This document shows, one piece after another, positions 1 to 15,943 of a stretch of DNA of 64,000 nucleotides (position 1 is its first letter; each line of letters opens with the position of its first letter). Below the pieces are notes generated by a model that saw nothing but the letters and a program-made list of their open reading frames with translations, was not told the DNA's origin and did not search any database. Position numbers and translations under genes: made by a program. The stretch is from an uncultured Gammaproteobacteria bacterium (GTDB lineage Bacteria; Pseudomonadota; Gammaproteobacteria; JAGOUU01). The DNA lies in NCBI GenBank assembly GCA_964609155.1, contig CAZSRF010000007.1, forward strand, positions 839 to 64,838, read 5' to 3'.

Positions 1-85
1 CAACGGAAACAACCAATACTAACCATGTAATCACAACTTTTAAAGATAAAATTGCTGCTTTAAAAAATAACTTTTATGGTCATGA

Positions 86-2251
86 TTAAAAACCACTTTC
101 TCGCAACATGATGGCGACAGCTCGCCGCCAAAACCTAGACATTATACTTACTTTTTCGCCATATAGATATAACTTTCCTTTTACAGAAAAATTAGGCAAA
201 TCTTTTATTGACACGTTACTTGGCTTAGCTATAACCTGATAAACTGCATCATGTAAAATTAAATTTTCAACTTCTCTTGTACGCTTAGTTTCTGCATTTT
301 TGTTTAAAAAAGTTGTCAACTCACCACCATATAGTGATGCTAAATATTTATTATCTAAATATTTACTGCCTGCCTTATTAAATCTTATTAATTGCACCTG
401 TATTGGAGCAAATCTCATTCGTTCAAAATAAAATTGTCCGTTAATTTTTGTAATATCCACATTAAGCCTAGCCACATCATGTTCATCCATATAACCCGTT
501 ATAGATAATGTTCCAGGATCGCTGACAGTAAACAAATAATTATTTTGATCATGCCAGGTATTTACCTTCAAATATTTTGATATATCTGTAATTTGACCAT
601 CATAAGGAGCAGCTATAGTAAGTTTAGCTTTTTCAGCTAAAGCACCTGCCAACTCAGATTCTTTGTCCATCAGCTCTTGTGCAGATGCCTGCTTCTCACC
701 TAAAACACGCCCCAAACCACTTTGTTCTCGTAATTTATTTTTGATAATATTTAACTCAACGGTTGACTTATTTACTTGATAATCGATTTCATCTGAAGTA
801 AATGCTGCTAAAACAGCATCTTTTTTCACCCAATCCCCCTGTTTAATATCTAATTTTTTTAACAACCCAGGGTTAAGAGTATATATTTTTACTTCTTTTT
901 CATATGTTAAAACAGCAGGAGTTTCGATTCTATTTTGCAATGGTACAAATAAAAGAATAACTCCAAATACAAAAATTGTTATTGTGACTAATGCTCGAGT
1001 AGGTAAATGTTCTGTTTTTTTCAAAAGCGCAGCACAAGCTATTGCTTCTTTATAGGCTGGATTAAGAATAAACAAATAAACTTCTGCTATCATCAATACA
1101 ACACCAAGTATTTTGAAAAAATAAAAATACACAATAGTAGCCACAGATAGATACAAACTAATTCTATATACCCATGAGAAATAAGCATAAAATAAATACA
1201 GCCTTAAGTCAGATTTTGAACATGGAACAGGTTGAGCGCCCTTGATTCCAAACAACTGCTTTCTAAAGTACCATGTAGCCAAGTTGTAAGCTTTAGTTTG
1301 CAAATTATCAGTCGCTAAAATCTCAGAGATAATATGATACCCATCATACCGTAATAATGGATTAGCATTAATTAAAATTGTGCTTATTATTGAAACAGTT
1401 GGTATATAAATTAAAATACTACGTAACACTCCATCATCTATCAACCCCCACAAAAATAGAGCTATAATGGCTACCCCAGTTTCTGCAATAATACCAGCAC
1501 TGGCAACAACAGTTCTATGATGTCGACTTTTAAGACGCCAAGTATCTGTTGTATCTGTATAAAAAACAGGCCAAAAAACTAACAAAGCTATCCCCATAGT
1601 AGGTATTTTACAACCATAATACTTTGCTACAAACGCATGACCAAGCTCATGAAAGAATTTGGTTACAAGTACAGCGACAGATAAAATAAACATATTCTGT
1701 GGTGTAAATAAATAGTCAAACTGACCTATAAATTCACCCCATTGTCGCATTATAAGATACAATCCCATCACAAGAATAAAAAATAATACATATAAAGTTT
1801 TTTTGGTAAATAAAACTTTGACATATTTCAACATGTGCCTCAAAGCCTTATCTGGCTTAAACAACGGCACTTGCAAGAATAAATATTTTTGTAGCGCTTT
1901 TTGAATAATATGTTTTTTACTGTCAGAATGTACTTGGTATAGATAATCACCAGTATTGCTTTGATCTATCTCTAGTAATTCGTTCAATTTTAAGAACTCT
2001 AATATTTTCTCTATATTTACAGTATTTATTTTTGTGGTCGTCGTAGCATTAACTATTTTACAAATATCATCTGGATTACCAAGATACCAGTGAGATATTA
2101 TTTCAAACTCCTGCCATCCAATACGAAAAAACTTTTCTTTCAATGGATCATGAATAACCCATGTTGGAGCACCAAATTTGTCATGCCCTCCATCAATAAT
2201 ATCAAGCTCCGATCTTAAGTTTGGTAAAGATTGAATAGCTACAGTGGCCAT
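86..2251 (-). CDS. M50 (site-2 protease family) intramembrane zinc metalloprotease fused to a C-terminal HlyD-like periplasmic adaptor domain
   Basis: Both S2P catalytic motifs are intact: HELGH (nt 1637-1651) and NPLLRYDG (nt 1343-1366), inside a polytopic hydrophobic core. The C-terminal ~270 aa has HlyD-like lipoyl half-motifs (GDWVKKDAVLA, TIAAPYDGQITDI) flanking a coiled coil. The track ORF starts at TTG 2281. The ATG at 2251 lies 2 nt after the upstream stop and is the likelier start. Confidence 0.8.
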   Translation of the reverse strand: MATVAIQSLPNLRSELDIIDGGHDKFGAPTWVIHDPLKEKFFRIGWQEFEIISHWYLGNPDDICKIVNATTTTKINTVNIEKILEFLKLNELLEIDQSNTGDYLYQVHSDSKKHIIQKALQKYLFLQVPLFKPDKALRHMLKYVKVLFTKKTLYVLFFILVMGLYLIMRQWGEFIGQFDYLFTPQNMFILSVAVLVTKFFHELGHAFVAKYYGCKIPTMGIALLVFWPVFYTDTTDTWRLKSRHHRTVVASAGIIAETGVAIIALFLWGLIDDGVLRSILIYIPTVSIISTILINANPLLRYDGYHIISEILATDNLQTKAYNLATWYFRKQLFGIKGAQPVPCSKSDLRLYLFYAYFSWVYRISLYLSVATIVYFYFFKILGVVLMIAEVYLFILNPAYKEAIACAALLKKTEHLPTRALVTITIFVFGVILLFVPLQNRIETPAVLTYEKEVKIYTLNPGLLKKLDIKQGDWVKKDAVLAAFTSDEIDYQVNKSTVELNIIKNKLREQSGLGRVLGEKQASAQELMDKESELAGALAEKAKLTIAAPYDGQITDISKYLKVNTWHDQNNYLFTVSDPGTLSITGYMDEHDVARLNVDITKINGQFYFERMRFAPIQVQLIRFNKAGSKYLDNKYLASLYGGELTTFLNKNAETKRTREVENLILHDAVYQVIAKPSNVSIKDLPNFSVKGKLYLYGEKVSIMSRFWRRAVAIMLRESGF

Positions 2252-2253
2252 AA

Positions 2254-3618
2254 TTAAATTCCAATTGTTCGGCGCAACCAAGAAATCGGTTTTCTAAATA
2301 TATAATATATCAACAGTACCCTGTTGCCATATATTTTAGCTGTACCCTTTATTCCAAATCGTTCATCTTTATTGAATTCATTTGTAAAATCTGCAACACC
2401 GTAATAAGCAAGTTTATCATCAGGCTGTAAGTCTGCATGTTTACTGATAAAATTTATATTAGCTTTCATTGGAGACAATGGCTTAGGATTGGGATAAAAC
2501 ACAACTTGTGATCTATCTGGCATTTCAATAAGATCATCAATTGGAATAAAAAGATCTAATTGTTTATTACTCTCACTCGCCAAGAGCATCACACGTTCAC
2601 CAATTTCTACTGGTCGACCTAGCCAGTTTTTTGGGTCTGAAAATATTACTGTACCAGCAAATTCAGCTCTTATCACAGCTCGATCTAACAATAGCTTATT
2701 ATAATTTGCTTCTATTTCTGCAATTTTAATGTCATCACTTAACACCCTTAGGTCGTTTTTGGCTTGAGCATCATTGTAGGATTGTTGATATCCTTTCCTA
2801 TACTTTTCTCTAACGACATCAAGACCTTTCTCTGATTGATCATATTTATTCTGCAAAGTAATTGTATCTAGCTTAAATAACGGTTGTCCTGCTCTAACCA
2901 TCTGATTTGGTAGAACATAAATCTCTTTAATCATTCCTTTTATTGACGAAGCTATAACTGTAGGGTTTTTAGGAGAGATTTCCGCAGGAACCAGTACTGA
3001 ATCCCGAATGGGATAAAACAAAACTAATAAAATTATAAATATAATAGTCTTCCTAGACTCATGAACTTTTTTTAATTTTTTATAAGAAGATACTTTATTT
3101 TGATATAAACGCCATATGTTTGAATAATATGTCATTACTTTCGGTATTTTTTCAATTACTTCAGGCGTCCAGTTCTCTGATGCTAATAGTATCAAACCAC
3201 CTTTCCTGGCACCTGGAAACAACACAGACACCATATACTTATACATTTCACCATCGTAACTTGCTATTGCGTCTTTAAATTTATCGATAGAAAAAAATGT
3301 TACTTTATTAGTTTCAAAAGCCAATTTTGGTAACAAGACTTTTTCCCATAAATGAATGTATGGAGCATGATGATTAACCACGCTAATAGCAGAGACTGCA
3401 AAAATCTTATAACCGTGCAAACTTTCTTGCCAAACAATAGCTTGATCATAAGGAATAATTTTTTTAGTATGATTTACTATATGAAAAGCTAATTGGGTGA
3501 TACTTGTAGACGTGAGTGCTTTACTAATTAACCAGGTTAAAGTTTTATCGTAACTATTTTCCTTTTGTTCTTCTGCGTTTGATTGGTTAGATGGAGTAAA
3601 TTTTATTTCTGTAGCCAT
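2254..3618 (-). CDS. HlyD-family membrane-fusion (adaptor) protein with ~185-aa cytoplasmic N-terminal domain
   Basis: Single TM anchor (IIFIILLVLFYPI) followed by HlyD-type lipoyl halves (IKGMIKEIYVLPNQMVRAGQPLFKLD, VIRAEFAGTVIF) around a coiled coil. The N-terminal domain has a GAF-like pattern (inference). There are 2-nt gaps to both neighbouring genes. Confidence 0.8.
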   Translation of the reverse strand: MATEIKFTPSNQSNAEEQKENSYDKTLTWLISKALTSTSITQLAFHIVNHTKKIIPYDQAIVWQESLHGYKIFAVSAISVVNHHAPYIHLWEKVLLPKLAFETNKVTFFSIDKFKDAIASYDGEMYKYMVSVLFPGARKGGLILLASENWTPEVIEKIPKVMTYYSNIWRLYQNKVSSYKKLKKVHESRKTIIFIILLVLFYPIRDSVLVPAEISPKNPTVIASSIKGMIKEIYVLPNQMVRAGQPLFKLDTITLQNKYDQSEKGLDVVREKYRKGYQQSYNDAQAKNDLRVLSDDIKIAEIEANYNKLLLDRAVIRAEFAGTVIFSDPKNWLGRPVEIGERVMLLASESNKQLDLFIPIDDLIEMPDRSQVVFYPNPKPLSPMKANINFISKHADLQPDDKLAYYGVADFTNEFNKDERFGIKGTAKIYGNRVLLIYYIFRKPISWLRRTIGI

Positions 3619-3620
3619 GT

Positions 3621-4466
3621 TTATGGCCCTTTAAATGTAGCATTACCACTTTCCCCTACAAAAAGCCCTGTGCTCTCACTAGTTATTTTACCAATCAACT
3701 TCACTGATTGACTAACAGCATCAGCATTGTAAATAATTTTGGTGACTTTTGCTTTATATTTACTACTAGTCTCTTTTATTGAAACTTCAAAATCGTCATT
3801 AATTTTTATCCAACTTAACCATTCTGATGGTACAATTGCAGTTACGTCTAAGTTCTTATTGTCTATTATGCTAAACAATTTATCACCTGCTTTTACAGTT
3901 TCAAAGTTTCTTACCTTTAATTCCATTAGTTGACCATCAAATGGAGCTTTTTGTATACAACGTTCAGCTTTGTATTGTGCAATCTTCAGCTTAGCTAATG
4001 AACTTTCGTAATCTCCTTGGCTTGTTAGTAATTCTGTTTTACTAGCACCATCTAAATTTGCTAGATTCTTCATAGCTTGATATTTTTTTTCATTAACAAT
4101 ATTTTCTGCTTTACTTTTTTCTAAATCTGCCGTGTAAACCGTACAATCAAATTTTAATAATACGTCATTTGCTTTAAAGTAATCACCTTCTTTGACTAAA
4201 ATTTCTTTAATTGTTCCATCTATTTCTGTCGAGATGACTGCTTGATTAGTTGTGGTTAATACTGCAGGAACTGCATACTTATCTATATTTAATTCACTAC
4301 CCAATGAAGTTATATGTGAATTTGGCAAATTAGTGGAATTATTTTGATTGGCTGTACTTTTATTATGTTGATTATTAACATCATTAGAAATAAACGTATT
4401 TTGCGCTTGCAAAATACTAATCGTAGTAATCATGACTAATGTAATTTTTTTTACTTTATGCTTCAT
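3621..4466 (-). CDS. Periplasmic adaptor subunit (efflux MFP/HlyD_D23-like), signal peptide
   Basis: N-terminal signal sequence (ITLVMITTISILQA). Lipoyl halves (ISTEIDGTIKEILVKEGDYFKANDVLLKFD, IQKAPFDGQLMELKV) with a short alpha-hairpin, then a beta-barrel-like C-terminus. The start overlaps the upstream stop (ATGA, 4463-4466). Confidence 0.75.
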   Translation of the reverse strand: MKHKVKKITLVMITTISILQAQNTFISNDVNNQHNKSTANQNNSTNLPNSHITSLGSELNIDKYAVPAVLTTTNQAVISTEIDGTIKEILVKEGDYFKANDVLLKFDCTVYTADLEKSKAENIVNEKKYQAMKNLANLDGASKTELLTSQGDYESSLAKLKIAQYKAERCIQKAPFDGQLMELKVRNFETVKAGDKLFSIIDNKNLDVTAIVPSEWLSWIKINDDFEVSIKETSSKYKAKVTKIIYNADAVSQSVKLIGKITSESTGLFVGESGNATFKGP

Positions 4467-6595
4467 AGCACGGCACTAATTAAATTTTTCTCTATATTTT
4501 TAGTATTATTTATCACACGCACCTGAGTTTGCATTTTACCTCTTGCTTGTGGCTCAGAGTTTGGTATCTGCTTTGGAAGCACTGAAGCAGGAGCAGGTGG
4601 ATTAACAGGTTCTACAGGAGTTGAACTAGGTTGTTGTTGCACAGGTTCTGGTGTAACTACAGGAGTAACTGGTGTATTAGATGGCAAAGGAGGATTAACA
4701 TTTCCTTCAATCTGGGTAGTTACAGGAGCAACCGGTGCACTAGATGGCAAAGGAGGATTAACATTTCCTTCAGTCTGGGTAGTTACAGGAGCAACAGGTG
4801 TACTAGATTGCAAAGGAGGAGCGACATTTTTTCCTTCATCCGGTGTAACTACCTTTAATTTTGCCTGTGCATTCTCAGGACGTCGGCGTATTCTCGAAAC
4901 TTTGTTTTTTTTATGATTGGATTTAATCTTAGCATCATTCTTAGATTTATCTTTCATGTTAATTACAGATGTATTATCCAATTTAGCTTGTTTCAACTTA
5001 GGCGACTCTAATCGAAGACCTTGCATTGGGATATCATTAATAGATTGGGATTTAGGTTTATTTATTTTTGATTTATTAAATTTAGCATATTTGCCCTTAA
5101 TCTCATCTAATGTTATATAAAACCCTTGCTTGCTTTTAAGAGAATCTGCTATCTCTTTAGCAATTGCTTTTATTGGCTGATTTAATGTAGTTAATTTATG
5201 CACACTGTTATAACCAACAGAATCTAATAATTCATGATAAGCGGAGAGTTTATCAAAATGCGCAGTTAAAACCCTTAATTTAGCGTCAAAATAATTAATT
5301 TTAGCATTGTATACTTCTAATTGACTTGCCAGATCAGATACCGAACGTTTTTTAAGATTTTCATAGACTATCTCATTATCTTCATAAAAACCTTGAGCCA
5401 GAACACTATTTCTTTCTGCCTCTAATAATCTCACATAAGCAATATTAACTTGAGTCAAAATAGATACTGCCAAAGCCTGACGACGAATTTTGCCAAGATC
5501 TTTATTTGCATTAGCTTTTTCTAAACGAGTATATTTACTAAAAAGATCTAATAAATTACCCGTCAATTGAACTGCTGTCTGCTTCCAAAAATTATAAACT
5601 AGAAAAGATGTGCTGTCATGAAATGCGCCATAATTTAGAGTAAAATTTGGTATCATTTGAAGCCGAGCTTTATAAATCTCATCCATATCAATACGGTTTT
5701 TTAACAACTCCTCTCTTATTTCAGAACGATTATGCAAAGCTAACAATTCGATTTGCTGTATATTATACGGTAAAGAGTTTAACTGTATTTTATCATCATA
5801 AGCCGTATTTAATTCAATTTTTGAGGCTGTTGGCACATTAATCAATAACGCTAATGTTACCACCGCTCTTTCAAGATTATTTTTCATTTTATTTATTTCG
5901 GTAGATTTATCCCATAATGCTATCCGAAATTCAGCTGCTTTTTCTTTAGATATTAACTGCTCTTTTTCCTGTTTTTTAGACTTTTCTATAGCTTGATCAA
6001 TTTCTTTGCTAAGTAGATTAATTTGTGGAATAATATTATTAGTAACGTGACTAGCCCAATATGCGGTACGTGTATCTCGAACAATCTCTTGTAATAGGGT
6101 TTTCTTTTTTTCTTCAAGCATTAAATATTCATTGGCTTTTTGTTTTGAGTTATAGTAGCTAATCCCAAAATCAAGAATACTCCATGACAATTGTAAATCT
6201 AATGTATTCGTATATTTATTACGCGACAAAGATACTTGATTTGTATTAGGCGATAAAACTTTACCTGGTCGATCACGGGCTGTGTAATTAAAATTTGCAA
6301 CAAGATCTGGAAGCATTTCATAGGTAACAGCACGATGCTCTATCAAACCTACTGCAGCTTCTTGAATTTTTTGTTTGTAACTTAAATTATATTTAATAGC
6401 TCTTGCAATTGCTTCTGAAAGGGTCAATGGCTTGATTAATGGTTCAGTAGTACGATAACGCTCAGAACGATCTAGATATAATGCTTTTTTAATCTCATCT
6501 TTAGTTAATGGTTCAGGATTAACTGAGCAACCATTAATAACCAAAATTAACAATAAAAAAGGTAAAAAAACTAACTTAGTATAATTGCTCTTCAT
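4463..6595 (-). CDS. TolC/NodT-family outer-membrane efflux lipoprotein with ~230-aa Lys- and Pro-rich C-terminal extension
   Basis: Lipobox (LVINGC). The first ~480 aa have the duplicated alpha-helical/beta pattern of outer-membrane efflux proteins (LTLSEAIARAIKYNLSYK, LNIAYVRLLEAERN). The C-terminal tail is KxK-rich, followed by PVAPVTTQxEGNVNPPLP repeats. Confidence 0.8.
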   Translation of the reverse strand: MKSNYTKLVFLPFLLLILVINGCSVNPEPLTKDEIKKALYLDRSERYRTTEPLIKPLTLSEAIARAIKYNLSYKQKIQEAAVGLIEHRAVTYEMLPDLVANFNYTARDRPGKVLSPNTNQVSLSRNKYTNTLDLQLSWSILDFGISYYNSKQKANEYLMLEEKKKTLLQEIVRDTRTAYWASHVTNNIIPQINLLSKEIDQAIEKSKKQEKEQLISKEKAAEFRIALWDKSTEINKMKNNLERAVVTLALLINVPTASKIELNTAYDDKIQLNSLPYNIQQIELLALHNRSEIREELLKNRIDMDEIYKARLQMIPNFTLNYGAFHDSTSFLVYNFWKQTAVQLTGNLLDLFSKYTRLEKANANKDLGKIRRQALAVSILTQVNIAYVRLLEAERNSVLAQGFYEDNEIVYENLKKRSVSDLASQLEVYNAKINYFDAKLRVLTAHFDKLSAYHELLDSVGYNSVHKLTTLNQPIKAIAKEIADSLKSKQGFYITLDEIKGKYAKFNKSKINKPKSQSINDIPMQGLRLESPKLKQAKLDNTSVINMKDKSKNDAKIKSNHKKNKVSRIRRRPENAQAKLKVVTPDEGKNVAPPLQSSTPVAPVTTQTEGNVNPPLPSSAPVAPVTTQIEGNVNPPLPSNTPVTPVVTPEPVQQQPSSTPVEPVNPPAPASVLPKQIPNSEPQARGKMQTQVRVINNTKNIEKNLISAVL
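4647..4852. repeat. In-frame 63-bp tandem repeat (about 3 copies), encoding 21-aa Pro-rich units
   Basis: Units at 4678-4740 and 4741-4803 are near-identical (tagatggcaaaggaggattaacatttccttca...). Degenerate partial copies flank them on both sides. Confidence 0.9.
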
Positions 6596-6836
6596 ATTCT
6601 TCTTATTTGCTTTGCTTATTTAATATAAAAATTATACGTCTATGTATACATTATAGATGGTATTTTTTTATCTTAAAGTTTATAGTTACAAACAATTACA
6701 AAACATGAAATAAACACTTAAAATTTAAAATAATAAAACTAACTCTAACGAATGTTATACCAAAAGATTATTAGAATCTTTTAGTATTACTTATTATAAT
6801 AATAATCAACAACCACTACACCCTATATACAGCCTA

Positions 6837-13061: not shown

Positions 13062-14732
13062 CTAATAGATAGTCAAAGGAGAAATCATTTCACCGCAAAC
13101 GTTTGATTGAGCTAGTGGAGCATCACTTTCTAATGGTATTGGTAATGGCTTTTGTTGAAATTTATAACAATGATAAGTTCGCATAGGTTTCACTGCGGCA
13201 GCCACATCTACTCCTGGTGCAACAGAATCTGCTACTCCAGCTACTCTAACTACTCTAACTACTCTAAGAGACGCTGGATAGTCTGAAGCATCAGGTAAAG
13301 GGCTAAATGCATCAATAGACGCTTTGCTGTTAGCAGTAAAAGACGCAGTATAAATTAGACCAAAAGCTAAATACTTTAAAACCCACACACTAGTTAACAA
13401 CGCCGAAACACCTGTCGCTACTCCCGTTGCATTACCTATGCAAAATAGTACCAACACACCTATAATTGTGTAGTTTATAATATTATTATACCATCTCTTA
13501 CTACCTAAATTTAAAGGATCTGTCGACGACTCAGCTTTCGTTCTATCTGCCGTCCCACTAAAGTATCTGTAGATGGTGTTTTTAATTGTGCCTAAAAACT
13601 GATATAAATTTTTGCCGTAAAATATACCATTTAAGCAACCAAGAACACTTATTATACCTGCTGATATTTGACTGGTAGTGATGCCAAAACCAAATAAACT
13701 TGTTAGTAATTGAAAAGATTCATTATAAAACCAAAGCTGAGCAAAAATAATCGCCGCTGCTGATAAACTAAGAGAAATCAAATCTGAGAAACCTAATTTC
13801 TTCCAACCAGATTCTGCAAAGAATTTTTTAAAACTTAAATAAGTCTTGTAACAAATTGGCTTAAATAATGCTATATTGGCCAAAGCAGTAACCGTTGCAA
13901 AAAATACTGATGCGATAAATAACAAGGGCAATGATGCTGACATAACAGCAGCAGCGGAACCTAAGCCATAGATCAGCATCCCAGCTGGCACATAAATAGA
14001 ATTAAATAAAAGTATTCCCATCGCTACACCAGCGAATACAGTAATAAAATTTAGGACCTGTTCTTCAAAAGAATTTATTTTAGGTTTTTTTGCTGCTTTT
14101 TTCTCTGATTTAAAAAAATTTTTTATAAATGAATAAATATCATTTTTATACAAAAAATAACTTACACAAAAAGCAGATAAACCAAAAACTGCCACATTAA
14201 ATAATGTAAAAACTCCATAACCATAAACTGCTAAAGCTCCTTCTGGAAAGGCCACTAAGAAAGCCAAAGCGAAAGCTAAATATCCAAAAAAATCTTTAAA
14301 ACGACGACGGGAAATTCTTTCTTTTTTTAGATTATTATACTCATTCCATGTGAATTCTTTAGACAAATCATGCCTACTAATTAGATAATTAAGATTGTGT
14401 GCATCAAGATATCTATTGATAGCAACTTTGATTTTTTTTAAACCAGGATCTTTGTGATCACTAGTTACACTGTGCTTTATAAATGTCTGTAATAAAATAT
14501 TGGCAAAACCGTCCTGGGTTAAATCTTTGGCGTGTTCGCAGCAAGCAGTTTGCAAGTCCTCTATAAACTTGTAACGCTTGGTATTTATGGCACATTCAAG
14601 TATATCTAAAAGATTTGCGTCGTAGTAACCACTAAAAAAAGGAATTTTGTTGAGTTTACTTTTTACATAATAACCTAAAGCGCTTGATTCGGTTATTATC
14701 CTAATAGTTCTTAATTCTCTTTCTACACTCAT
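13062..14732 (-). CDS. Hypothetical polytopic membrane protein (556 aa) with soluble N-terminal ~150 aa
   Basis: About 10 hydrophobic segments after a charged N-domain. The C-terminal tail carries VRV repeats and a Pro/acidic stretch. I recognise no family. Confidence 0.55.
   Translation of the reverse strand: MSVERELRTIRIITESSALGYYVKSKLNKIPFFSGYYDANLLDILECAINTKRYKFIEDLQTACCEHAKDLTQDGFANILLQTFIKHSVTSDHKDPGLKKIKVAINRYLDAHNLNYLISRHDLSKEFTWNEYNNLKKERISRRRFKDFFGYLAFALAFLVAFPEGALAVYGYGVFTLFNVAVFGLSAFCVSYFLYKNDIYSFIKNFFKSEKKAAKKPKINSFEEQVLNFITVFAGVAMGILLFNSIYVPAGMLIYGLGSAAAVMSASLPLLFIASVFFATVTALANIALFKPICYKTYLSFKKFFAESGWKKLGFSDLISLSLSAAAIIFAQLWFYNESFQLLTSLFGFGITTSQISAGIISVLGCLNGIFYGKNLYQFLGTIKNTIYRYFSGTADRTKAESSTDPLNLGSKRWYNNIINYTIIGVLVLFCIGNATGVATGVSALLTSVWVLKYLAFGLIYTASFTANSKASIDAFSPLPDASDYPASLRVVRVVRVAGVADSVAPGVDVAAAVKPMRTYHCYKFQQKPLPIPLESDAPLAQSNVCGEMISPLTIY
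13241..13267. repeat. In-frame 9-bp tandem repeat x3 (ctactctaa), encoding (VRV)n
   Basis: Direct reading of 13241-13267, within the 3' part of the 556-aa ORF. Confidence 0.9.
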
Positions 14733-14854: not shown

Positions 14855-15943
14855 TTACCCACCCGGACTGATTTCAATAGCATCTATTGCCATTAATTTA
14901 TAGTACTCGTATGTCATGTAAAATTCACCATTATCCCCTGATGTACTACCCCATGAATTACGTATTTTTAATACTTGTTGCGCATCGTTATAACCTACTA
15001 CAATAACTTCATGACCACTAGCCTCATTATTCGCAATTTGTTCGTCTAATTCTTTAAAAAAGCTCTCAAGTCCTGTCTTACTAGTAGGCAAAGCCCATAA
15101 ACCAGAAGTTTTATTATTAATAGGATATCCATTAGCATACTCAATTTTTGAAGGGTTGATTAAAAACCCCATAGCGACTCTATTGCCGTTATTTAAAGCT
15201 TTTTTTAATTCTTCAATATTGCCACTCTCAATAAATTTCCAGTTGAAATCTTTCGACCATTGGCCATTGAAACTTAAATTTTTATATTCATCTGTTGATA
15301 ATTTTTTATTTTTAACTGGATATTTATTTAAACATTGTGCTTTAGCAATTACTCCGTGACTTTGAACTCGCGCTAATTGGCATTCAGCAAAATAGCCATC
15401 CCAACCCGATAAATTATTACATAAATCATATTCAATGTTATTAGGTATATAATAAGTGCTACTTAACTCTAATAAACACTGTTGACTCACAAAATCACCT
15501 GCTTGCTTCAAAGCATCTAAAGCTGCAGTAATAGCAAAAGTAACACAGGTTCCCAAAGATCCTTGATCTAAAACAGGTACATTAGCCATTTTTAGATCCA
15601 CATTGAAATTTGTGTCACTCACATAAGATGGGGTTCCCTGTGTACCAAAACTTAAATGCTCATCAATAATATTTTCCGCTTTGTTTATAATACGCTGTTG
15701 AGATTTTGGGCTGATCTCTATTGTAGATAGTCTAATAGTCTTATGTTGTTTAAAGTACTCTTTTGCAAAAACTAAATCTAATGGACTATTTTCTAACGAA
15801 ATGCTTACAGATGTAGTACCAATTACATTGATCTCTTCAGCAGCTATAGTAGTAGTCTGCGAAATAGCTATATTAGACGTTACAATAAAAAATGTAACTA
15901 TAGATAGTCCTAACCAGTAATTCATTAAGTTAAACATACCCAC
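14855..15943 (-). CDS. Papain-like (C1 family) cysteine peptidase, secreted or membrane-anchored
   Basis: Catalytic-site context QGSLGTCVTFAITAA (Cys), HEVIVVGYN (His) and NSWG (Asn/Trp), plus an N-terminal hydrophobic signal. The track start is GTG 15943, and ATG 15937 is an alternative. Confidence 0.8.
   Translation of the reverse strand: MGMFNLMNYWLGLSIVTFFIVTSNIAISQTTTIAAEEINVIGTTSVSISLENSPLDLVFAKEYFKQHKTIRLSTIEISPKSQQRIINKAENIIDEHLSFGTQGTPSYVSDTNFNVDLKMANVPVLDQGSLGTCVTFAITAALDALKQAGDFVSQQCLLELSSTYYIPNNIEYDLCNNLSGWDGYFAECQLARVQSHGVIAKAQCLNKYPVKNKKLSTDEYKNLSFNGQWSKDFNWKFIESGNIEELKKALNNGNRVAMGFLINPSKIEYANGYPINNKTSGLWALPTSKTGLESFFKELDEQIANNEASGHEVIVVGYNDAQQVLKIRNSWGSTSGDNGEFYMTYEYYKLMAIDAIEISPGG

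Follow-up and report, generated by a model that had tools for sequence, protein, structure and literature searches.

The operon and its four products

The 64,000-nt stretch of DNA analyzed here, from an uncultured gammaproteobacterium (contig CAZSRF010000007.1; the whole stretch is called the window below), carries at its left edge four minus-strand genes that form one translationally coupled operon. They encode a TolC-family lipoprotein, two periplasmic adaptors and a fusion of an M50 metalloprotease with a third adaptor domain, and a repeat-protein gene converges on them from the other side. The first junction, CTATGAAG, is an ATGA overlap between the lipoprotein gene and the gene of the 281-aa protein, while the other two (TAA-AC-ATG and TAA-TT-ATG) leave a gap of 2 nt each. 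Read directly from the sequence, these junctions agree with the coupling of the genes from 6595 down to 86 in the original prediction, which had been made from the letters alone. On balance we regard the operon as the envelope-spanning part of a dedicated, leader-directed machine that probably processes and exports a neighboring giant surface protein. The features of the locus are as follows.

4463..6595, minus strand: TolC-family outer-membrane factor (OMF), a lipoprotein of 710 aa (Pfam OEP 6e-27 and a lipobox)
3621..4466, minus strand: short periplasmic adaptor (membrane fusion protein, MFP) of 281 aa with a signal-peptide-like N-terminus (HlyD_D23, HlyD_3, TIGR01730)
2254..3618, minus strand: GAF–transmembrane (TM)–adaptor protein of 454 aa (HlyD_3 8e-9 and one TM segment)
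86..2251, minus strand: RRE–M50 (site-2 protease, S2P)–adaptor fusion, 721 aa from ATG (Peptidase_M50, HlyD_3)
3..89, plus strand: end of the convergent repeat-protein gene, last 28 codons and stop, presumed cargo
6596..6836: intergenic region 5′ of the operon, divergent from yggT, presumed from its position to hold the promoter

Scans with Pfam and NCBIfam upheld the OEP, HlyD and M50 assignments of the original prediction. The fusion protein scores 33.7 bits with Peptidase_M50 (cutoff 27.2) and, in its C-terminal part, 23.7 bits with HlyD_3 (cutoff 22.2). An RRE-like domain at residues 17-89 (nt 1985-2203) is followed by a polytopic M50 core at about 134-435 (nt 947-1852) and a periplasmic MFP at 439-701 (nt 149-937). 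The catalytic motifs HELGH (201-205, nt 1637-1651) and NPLLRYDG (296-303, nt 1343-1366) lie in the core. In an AlphaFold2 model (pLDDT 80.5), residues 17-89 form three strands and three helices, the region of about 134-435 is a helical membrane core, and the adaptor displays a hairpin at 487-542 and a terminal helix. The fusion accordingly has the HExxH and NxxPxxxxDG pair of M50/S2P proteases in a polytopic core of S2P fold, behind an N-terminal PqqD-like RRE of three strands plus three helices. A TTG at 2281 is an alternative start that would give 731 aa.

Across 20 aligned homologs of the fusion, H201, E202, H205, N295, D303 and G304 are invariant, as is the C-terminal …RESGF. Because the catalytic residues never vary, the fusion is predicted to be an active protease. 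Besides the catalytic site, two glutamates that are membrane-embedded in the model, E257 and E390, are invariant in the same alignment and may offer a lead to the energy source. Residues 40-399 match the family of daptide intramembrane metalloproteases (NF041824) at 1.2e-43; with 149.8 bits against an equivalog cutoff of 300, the protein is homologous to this family and not a member of it. The same holds for the YydH/LiaK family NF058609 (4.5e-15, 56 bits against a cutoff of 225). According to its authors, the daptide enzyme MpaP takes off the leader as an ‘RRE-dependent intramembrane peptidase’ (bioRxiv 10.1101/2023.03.08.531785), and shorter relatives carry the PGAP label ‘PqqD family peptide modification chaperone’. 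Sequence and profile searches of the PDB found no solved structure of a close relative, returning generic MFPs and S2Ps only.

The fusion belongs to a large family. A word-indexed search returned more than 1,778 homologs, and among those listed nearly all are full-length with 695-727 aa; a profile search of 1.84 billion cluster representatives yielded 5,755 proteins at E≤1e-30. Their names are confined to ‘putative peptide zinc metalloprotease protein’, ‘HlyD family efflux transporter periplasmic adaptor subunit’ and ‘site-2 protease family protein’, so the earlier remark that comparable fusions are only generically annotated was apt. The companion remark, that no functional study was known, likewise agrees with our full-text literature searches, which found none.

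The OMF matches Pfam OEP with 95 bits (cutoff 22) over a core of about residues 50-470 and carries the lipobox LVINGC at residues 19-24. Some 240 aa at its C-terminus (window 4463-5155), in which Pro, Thr and Val abound, form an extension that is lacking in most homologous OMFs of the system, which have about 510 aa. A 63-nt tandem repeat of 2.6 copies lies inside this extension at 4658-4820 (…NVNPPLPSSAPVAPVTTQIEG…), and the OMF of a relative (SRR14234075) is 715 aa long. The 281-aa protein is a genuine adaptor, with matches to HlyD_D23 (7e-17) and HlyD_3 (8e-17) and 99.7 bits with TIGR01730 (RND_mfp), above the curated cutoff of 94.9. The other two adaptor domains remain below that cutoff with 53 and 47 bits and pass the Pfam HlyD_3 gathering threshold. 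In the 454-aa protein, a cytoplasmic N-domain of about 185 aa contains a domain of GAF fold at about residues 14-150 (nt 3169-3579), followed by a TM segment at 192-210, a periplasmic MFP at 203-435 and a conserved C-terminal helix (…FRKPI..R..IG). The known adaptors structurally nearest to those of the system are MacA, EmrA and BesA, with HlyD also among the closest.

In both the GAF-adaptor (window 2254-2300) and the M50 fusion (86-130), the beta-barrel domain is followed by a conserved terminal helix, with the tail patterns …LFYYLFRKPI..R..IG and …R.WR…AV.IRESGF, respectively. These helices suggest that the two adaptor halves are paralogous. Their tails may return to the membrane or touch each other.

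No ABC, RND or MFS pump of a tripartite system is encoded in the operon or among 18 other ORFs of the window that were scanned with Pfam, the largest included, in line with the original prediction. The scanned ORFs are mostly housekeeping genes (YggT, Ham1, AI-2E, LysR, M48, GuaAB, YhdP, SecD, ClpB, LeuS); GyrA and RpsA were recognized from their translations alone. SecD, the sole protein of the RND superfamily among them, lies 45 kb from the operon. A transporter gene immediately downstream, for which the original prediction had asked us to look, is absent: the stop of the plus-strand ORF at 87-89 overlaps the stop of the M50 gene by 4 nt, leaving no room for a pump 3′ of it. Upstream of the operon, the intergenic region 6596..6836 contains one sigma-70-like match (just 9/12, at 6758-6730 on the minus strand). 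Promoter-like sites are not more numerous there than in shuffled sequence, and a terminator scan likewise found nothing above the shuffled expectation.

Conserved gene order and giant neighbors

We scanned one genome per species for homologous loci, found at least 599, and analyzed the best 80. The four window proteins were compared with the ORFs of these loci using phmmer, and all counts refer to evaluable loci. In 70 of 73 loci the gene immediately upstream of the M50 fusion encodes a homolog of the 454-aa protein; the short adaptor is at its operon position in 60 of 71, and the OMF in 41 of 63. In some lineages, such as the P. fluorescens group, the OMF is placed after the cargo gene, and a few genomes (Colwellia, one of the Comamonadaceae) have the two-gene core only. 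Clustering of the neighboring genes revealed no conserved ABC, RND or MFS gene within 10 kb in the 80 loci. The unit of OMF, three adaptors and M50 protease is thus kept without a pump in dozens of related loci, which answers the call of the original prediction for a check of neighborhood conservation. One recurrent ABC cluster was rejected as part of the system, as it comprises assorted ATPases at variable distance and of variable size, the Pfam-scanned member being an oligopeptide-type ATPase. Several other apparently conserved clusters were antisense ORFs lying inside core genes of genomes with a high GC content, and were discarded.

Represented among the loci are Alpha-, Beta-, Gamma- and Deltaproteobacteria, Nitrospira, Scalindua and Pelagibacteraceae (SAR11), with further hosts among Coxiellaceae, Pseudomonas, Burkholderia, Rhizobium, Chromobacterium and others. 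The module also occurs in anammox bacteria, methanotrophs, rhizobia and Azospirillum. Single-cell genomes of SAR11 (Pelagibacteraceae L030, L052 and L069) hold a three-gene form with no adjacent OMF; despite their very small genomes, the neighbor of this form is a giant that exceeds 2,300 aa and has both leader and DUF4347 (see below).

What adjoins the operon is most often a giant protein. Among the 40 loci with at least 9 kb of flank on both sides, 35 have an adjacent giant with Ig, cadherin or tandem-95 repeats; 34 of these belong to the main set of giants and the thirty-fifth is a Big_13/He_PIG giant. The largest cluster of neighbors (56 loci) consists of ORFs that mostly run off the 10-kb flank, i.e., exceed 2,000 aa. 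Overall the giants range from roughly 900 to more than 5,800 aa and contain Big_9, Cadherin_4/5, He_PIG, Big_5, Laminin_G_3 or beta-helix domains as well as tandem-95 repeats; one known from a metagenome, a LapA/Calx-beta protein, has 5,850 aa. The linked giants have essentially no RTX repeats, with 0-4 chance matches each. A short C-terminal motif, G[KR]x[SA][LF]xxQ[LF], is common: the strict pattern finds it in 16 of 38 giants, and looser patterns find more.

The giants share their beginning. Two of the 25 rows of a leader alignment start inside repeats, leaving 23 giants with a genuine visible N-terminus, and all 23 have the same leader: a short basic stretch and then [LM]x[AS]LE[PSQ]R[IMLV][ML]FD[GA]A..AT. 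An acidic linker of about 20 to 190 aa follows, and then DUF4347 (PF14252, with E-values down to 5e-56) in 22 of the 23. As a regular expression the leader matched 28 times in the six frames of 1.43 Mb; 27 matches lie near the N-terminus of a large ORF, and none heads a small peptide ORF. The ORFs checked in this way were those listed as operon-adjacent giants. The motif corresponds to the NCBIfam entry LEPR-XLL (NF012209), whose cutoff of 17 bits is passed by one giant (19.5 bits) and narrowly missed by two others (16.2 and 12.7 bits). The twenty-third giant, from Marinomonas rhizomae (L076:1056-6074), has a LEPR-type leader (…FALEQRMMFDAAGAAT…) followed by a lactonase-type beta-propeller and no DUF4347. 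It therefore appears that the leader, and not DUF4347, is the common denominator of the cargo.

The DUF4347 profile matches chain G of PDB 9QPE, which is the Pseudomonas aeruginosa type VI secretion system (T6SS) cargo Tce1 (PA0256). The top PDB matches of this profile were de novo TIM barrels, which we dismissed as a low-complexity artefact. By its authors' account (PMC13323088), Tce1 structurally resembles the cysteine protease domain (CPD) of TcdB and MARTX toxins, and they proposed a His/Cys dyad. We take DUF4347 as a putative CPD-like cysteine protease domain. The Cys is invariant across 14 aligned DUF4347 domains. The His of the ‘SHG’ motif is near-invariant; in the giants of Nitrospira and Nitrospirota (L011, L015, L016) it is replaced by Glu (GEG or AEG). 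The replaced residue corresponds to the His that is putatively catalytic in Tce1, and the Cys is kept. These domains may be inactive or have altered chemistry.

Between operon and giant, loci of Pseudomonas, Phytobacter and Chromobacterium recurrently carry accessory genes for a sulfotransferase, an APS kinase, a GNAT acetyltransferase and a phage-tail-collar-domain protein (L043:13964-14827, L077:12178-12888, L027:12046-12633, L067:14399-15079). Their products may modify the cargo.

In the window, the ORF that converges on the operon ends in …TETTNTNHVITTFKDKIAALKNNFYGHD with its stop at 87-89. The contig has 65,312 nt, only 1,312 nt more than the window, and the repeat gene is therefore truncated. 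For relatives of 95% and 99% identity, at least 302-308 aa of this ORF can be read before the contigs end, and these fragments match Big_9 (2e-11), Cadherin_4 (2e-8) and the tandem-95 repeat. For a 69% relative, a homology search with the C-terminal fragment, which returned partial proteins only, found a partial ‘VCBS’ protein on the same contig. The contigs of three relatives end 0.9-1 kb into the repeat gene, and a break of three independent assemblies in one gene fits a long repetitive gene. The C-terminal …TFKDKIAALKNNFYG of the window ORF also resembles the motif F.PL..QL……NYG of the SAR11 and Colwellia giants. From this likeness and the Big_9/Cadherin_4 repeats of the relatives, a repeat-protein gene abuts the operon in the window too, and it is the putative cargo gene of the operon. 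No LEPR-type motif and no DUF4347 were found anywhere in the 64-kb window.

The module is mobile. On plasmid p2 of Azospirillum brasilense Sp7 a DUF4347 protein (12.6-kb gene) is followed by a TolC family protein, an RND adaptor, HlyD and a second HlyD that is the fusion. Of 52 plasmids with a full-length fusion, at least 41 are also among the top 60 DUF4347 matches, and in the plasmid records checked the DUF4347 match lies 15-20 kb from the fusion gene. A 69-kb Escherichia coli IncFIA/FIB plasmid (NZ_CP081687.1; L087, record 43301-65430) has a five-gene module between ISKpn26 and IS1B that encodes a 4,459-aa Ig-like protein, TolC, an adaptor, the GAF-adaptor and the M50 fusion. The 4,459-aa protein starts with MTTIKNRRLRPRAHRFALESRQLFDGAALAE…, contains MTTIKNRRLRPRAHRFALESRQLFDGA… in its leader, has the DUF4347 signature SHG/YGC and ends in …GAPSLAAQVDAL…. 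No transporter gene is listed on this plasmid, for which the PLSDB gene table is incomplete. Among 5,426 complete E. coli genomes, 24 have the cassette at 99% identity or more, in most cases on a plasmid, and five-gene modules are also found on plasmids of Citrobacter, Hafnia and Kosakonia. With the E. coli IncF cassette an experimental model is at hand in which the roles proposed below are directly testable.

Proposed mechanism and its rivals

Fold and homology place the RRE of the fusion in the cytoplasm, its predicted-active M50/S2P core in the inner membrane and its adaptor in the periplasm. In the mechanism that we propose, the RRE would bind the N-terminal leader of the cargo (the basic stretch, then …LEPR[IM][ML]FDGAxxAT…) in the cytoplasm, and the M50 site, probably open towards the cytoplasm, would cut the leader off, as is proposed for homologous MpaP and daptide precursors. 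The short MFP, the GAF-MFP and the M50-MFP could form a periplasmic tube that docks to the TolC-family lipoprotein and through which the cargo would exit. The GAF domain of the 454-aa adaptor may sense a ligand or bind cargo and thereby gate the process. The energy might come from the proton-motive force, from a host component, or from the Ig/cadherin repeats, whose folding outside the cell could act as a ratchet.

The reading of the operon as a dedicated, leader-directed export machine is favored by the conserved gene order, by the adjacent giants and their shared leader, by the homology and invariant motifs of the protease, by the lack of a conserved pump gene and, in the window, by the repeat-protein gene that converges on the operon. 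No NTPase or recognized pump belongs to the module. Several points weigh against it. About 12% of the well-flanked loci have no adjacent giant, and many DUF4347 plasmids, for example 40 from Phaeobacter, are not among the fusion records listed, so that the cargo class is not strictly tied to the machine. In the window itself the N-terminus of the repeat protein lies off the contig and its leader and DUF4347 are out of sight; the gene is also convergent, whereas the cargo gene is co-directional with the operon in most loci. Cleavage, export and complex formation are steps that we infer. To our knowledge there is no precedent for a protein of several thousand residues crossing the inner membrane without an identifiable motor. 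A further-reaching claim would be that the four components are the whole machine and represent a distinct class of secretion system in diderms, one that is ABC-independent, directed by an N-terminal leader, and exports adhesin-like giants after intramembrane removal of the LEPR leader. This we advance only tentatively, as less likely than not, though with a substantial chance of being right.

All characterized tripartite systems have an energized inner-membrane partner (Chem Rev review PMC8277102), and the operon could be an incomplete classical system whose pump (an ABC protein of type I secretion system (T1SS) or MacB-like type, an RND or an MFS protein) is encoded elsewhere, with the M50 core only trimming the leader. 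The likeness of the adaptors to MacA, EmrA and HlyD fits this explanation, and the conserved C-terminal motif of the giants could be a T1SS-type signal. Moreover, one reported LEPR-XLL giant bears RTX and serralysin domains at its C-terminus (PMC10868602), which hints that classical T1SS may serve some such proteins and is thus a further point against our reading. Against it, the 80 loci have no conserved pump gene within 10 kb; the module moves as a five-gene cassette bounded by insertion sequences on a plasmid that lists no transporter, and the linked giants have essentially no RTX repeats. Nor would a standard pump need three adaptors with cytoplasmic sensor and recognition domains. We therefore consider a separately encoded pump rather unlikely.

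A device for retention and release, comparable to LapD/LapG–LapA, is another candidate. Here the giant would be threaded through the conduit with its N-terminus held by the RRE, until a ligand-gated M50 cut, controlled by the GAF domain, releases it. The GAF sensor fold on one adaptor, the N-terminal leader with a linker and then a domain that is putatively CPD-like and self-processing behind it, and the adhesin-like architecture of the cargo are all compatible with such a device, which nevertheless still requires an export route and energy and so extends the export model and does not replace it. No GAF ligand is known, and neighbor clustering found no c-di-GMP module conserved in the loci, although no search aimed at LapG/LapD was made. 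As an explanation in its own right it seems improbable to us.

The least probable of the explanations, to which we give very little credence, is that put forward in the original prediction: maturation and export of a small peptide (a peptide made on ribosomes and modified after translation, RiPP, or a bacteriocin), or an S2P-type signaling cascade. One part of it has held. With its RRE fold and its homology to MpaP and YydH/LiaK, the M50 protein is of the leader-removing kind, as a cleavage-coupled export of peptides would have it. A small cargo is unlikely, because the only proteins of the loci with a conserved leader are giants: 27 of the 28 leader matches head a large ORF, the window contains no LEPR-type motif, and neither a conserved small precursor ORF nor a modification enzyme was found among the neighbors in the 80 loci, nor any in the window. 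Trans-envelope signaling finds no footing either, as no sigma/anti-sigma pair is conserved in the neighborhood.

Relation to known systems and further observations

Tripartite envelope machines are classed by their inner-membrane motor, which is ABC, RND or MFS. In the present system a single inner-membrane component is polytopic: a metalloprotease, predicted to recognize a leader, that is fused to an adaptor. In its working the system is closest to the T1SS for giant adhesins (LapA–LapBCE, SiiE–SiiCDF) and to HlyA–HlyBD–TolC, and it is set apart by this inner-membrane component. Shared with T1SS are a TolC-family OMF and HlyD-type adaptors beside a giant Ig/cadherin-repeat protein, as well as the presumed one-step route across both membranes. 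The C-terminal signal of T1SS cargo is not cleaved and usually comes with RTX GGxGxD repeats. The putative cargo of our system has a conserved N-terminal leader and essentially no RTX repeats, and many of the giants share the other short C-terminal motif given above. Furthermore, the system has MFPs and an OMF and lacks a dedicated ABC transporter, it has three adaptor domains instead of one, and its inner-membrane part is an RRE–M50 metalloprotease.

Daptide MpaP (NF041824) and YydH/LiaK (NF058609) have the same N-terminal RRE-like domain and M50 core with HExxH and NxxPxxxxDG. The window fusion falls far below the curated cutoffs of both families and adds a periplasmic adaptor domain; moreover, its hosts are diderms with an OMF, its putative substrates are thousands of residues long and no modification enzymes accompany it. 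PCAT exporters, in which a C39 peptidase–ABC protein works with an MFP, also couple leader cleavage to export via an adaptor (and TolC in Gram-negatives). There the enzyme is a C39 cysteine protease and the leader is of the double-glycine type, in contrast to the M50 metalloprotease and the LEPR-type leader of the linked giants; none of the four operon proteins has a C39 or ABC match in Pfam or NCBIfam. The tripartite efflux pumps MacAB-TolC, EmrAB-TolC and AcrAB-TolC resemble the system in their adaptor structures and in having an OMF partner, here a lipoprotein, but no equivalent of MacB, EmrB or AcrB is present and the adaptors bear cytoplasmic GAF and RRE/M50 modules. Tce1 (PDB 9QPE) is a small T6SS cargo, while the DUF4347 of the present system sits behind the leader at the start of giants. 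A preprint on giant proteins of Chlorochromatium concerns a different system, annotated as TolC/SapC/HlyD.

LEPR-XLL and DUF4347 of the linked giants are catalogued features with no function assigned. Searches of the full texts open without subscription revealed no study that deals with the operon, with the fusion or with any connection of LEPR-XLL/DUF4347 to the fusion. New here are the size of the family, the conserved gene order, the adjacency of giant proteins, their shared leader and the RRE/MpaP homology of the protease. The copy in the window is an ordinary member of an uncharacterized family, and the interest lies in the family: the module is common and is tied to some of the largest proteins that its host organisms encode. 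If self-sufficient, it would be a new export route for giant surface proteins and would pose a new question on how such export is powered. If not, it would still assign the catalogued LEPR-XLL motif a role as leader, give a role to thousands of genes named ‘HlyD family efflux transporter periplasmic adaptor subunit’, and represent a non-RiPP use of the RRE and M50 leader-peptidase pair.

Away from the operon, the window encodes a 556-aa protein (13062-14732, minus strand) with several hydrophobic stretches, no Pfam match and a repeat-like tail, VRVVRVVRVAGVADSVAPGVDVAAAV. Two further proteins stand among housekeeping genes: one with a DOT1-like histone-methyltransferase domain (PF08123, 2.4e-14; 19620-20348, minus strand), the other a secreted C1-like protease of the papain family (14855-15943, minus strand). 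These eukaryote-like proteins, together with a GC content of about 32%, suggest a host-associated gammaproteobacterium.

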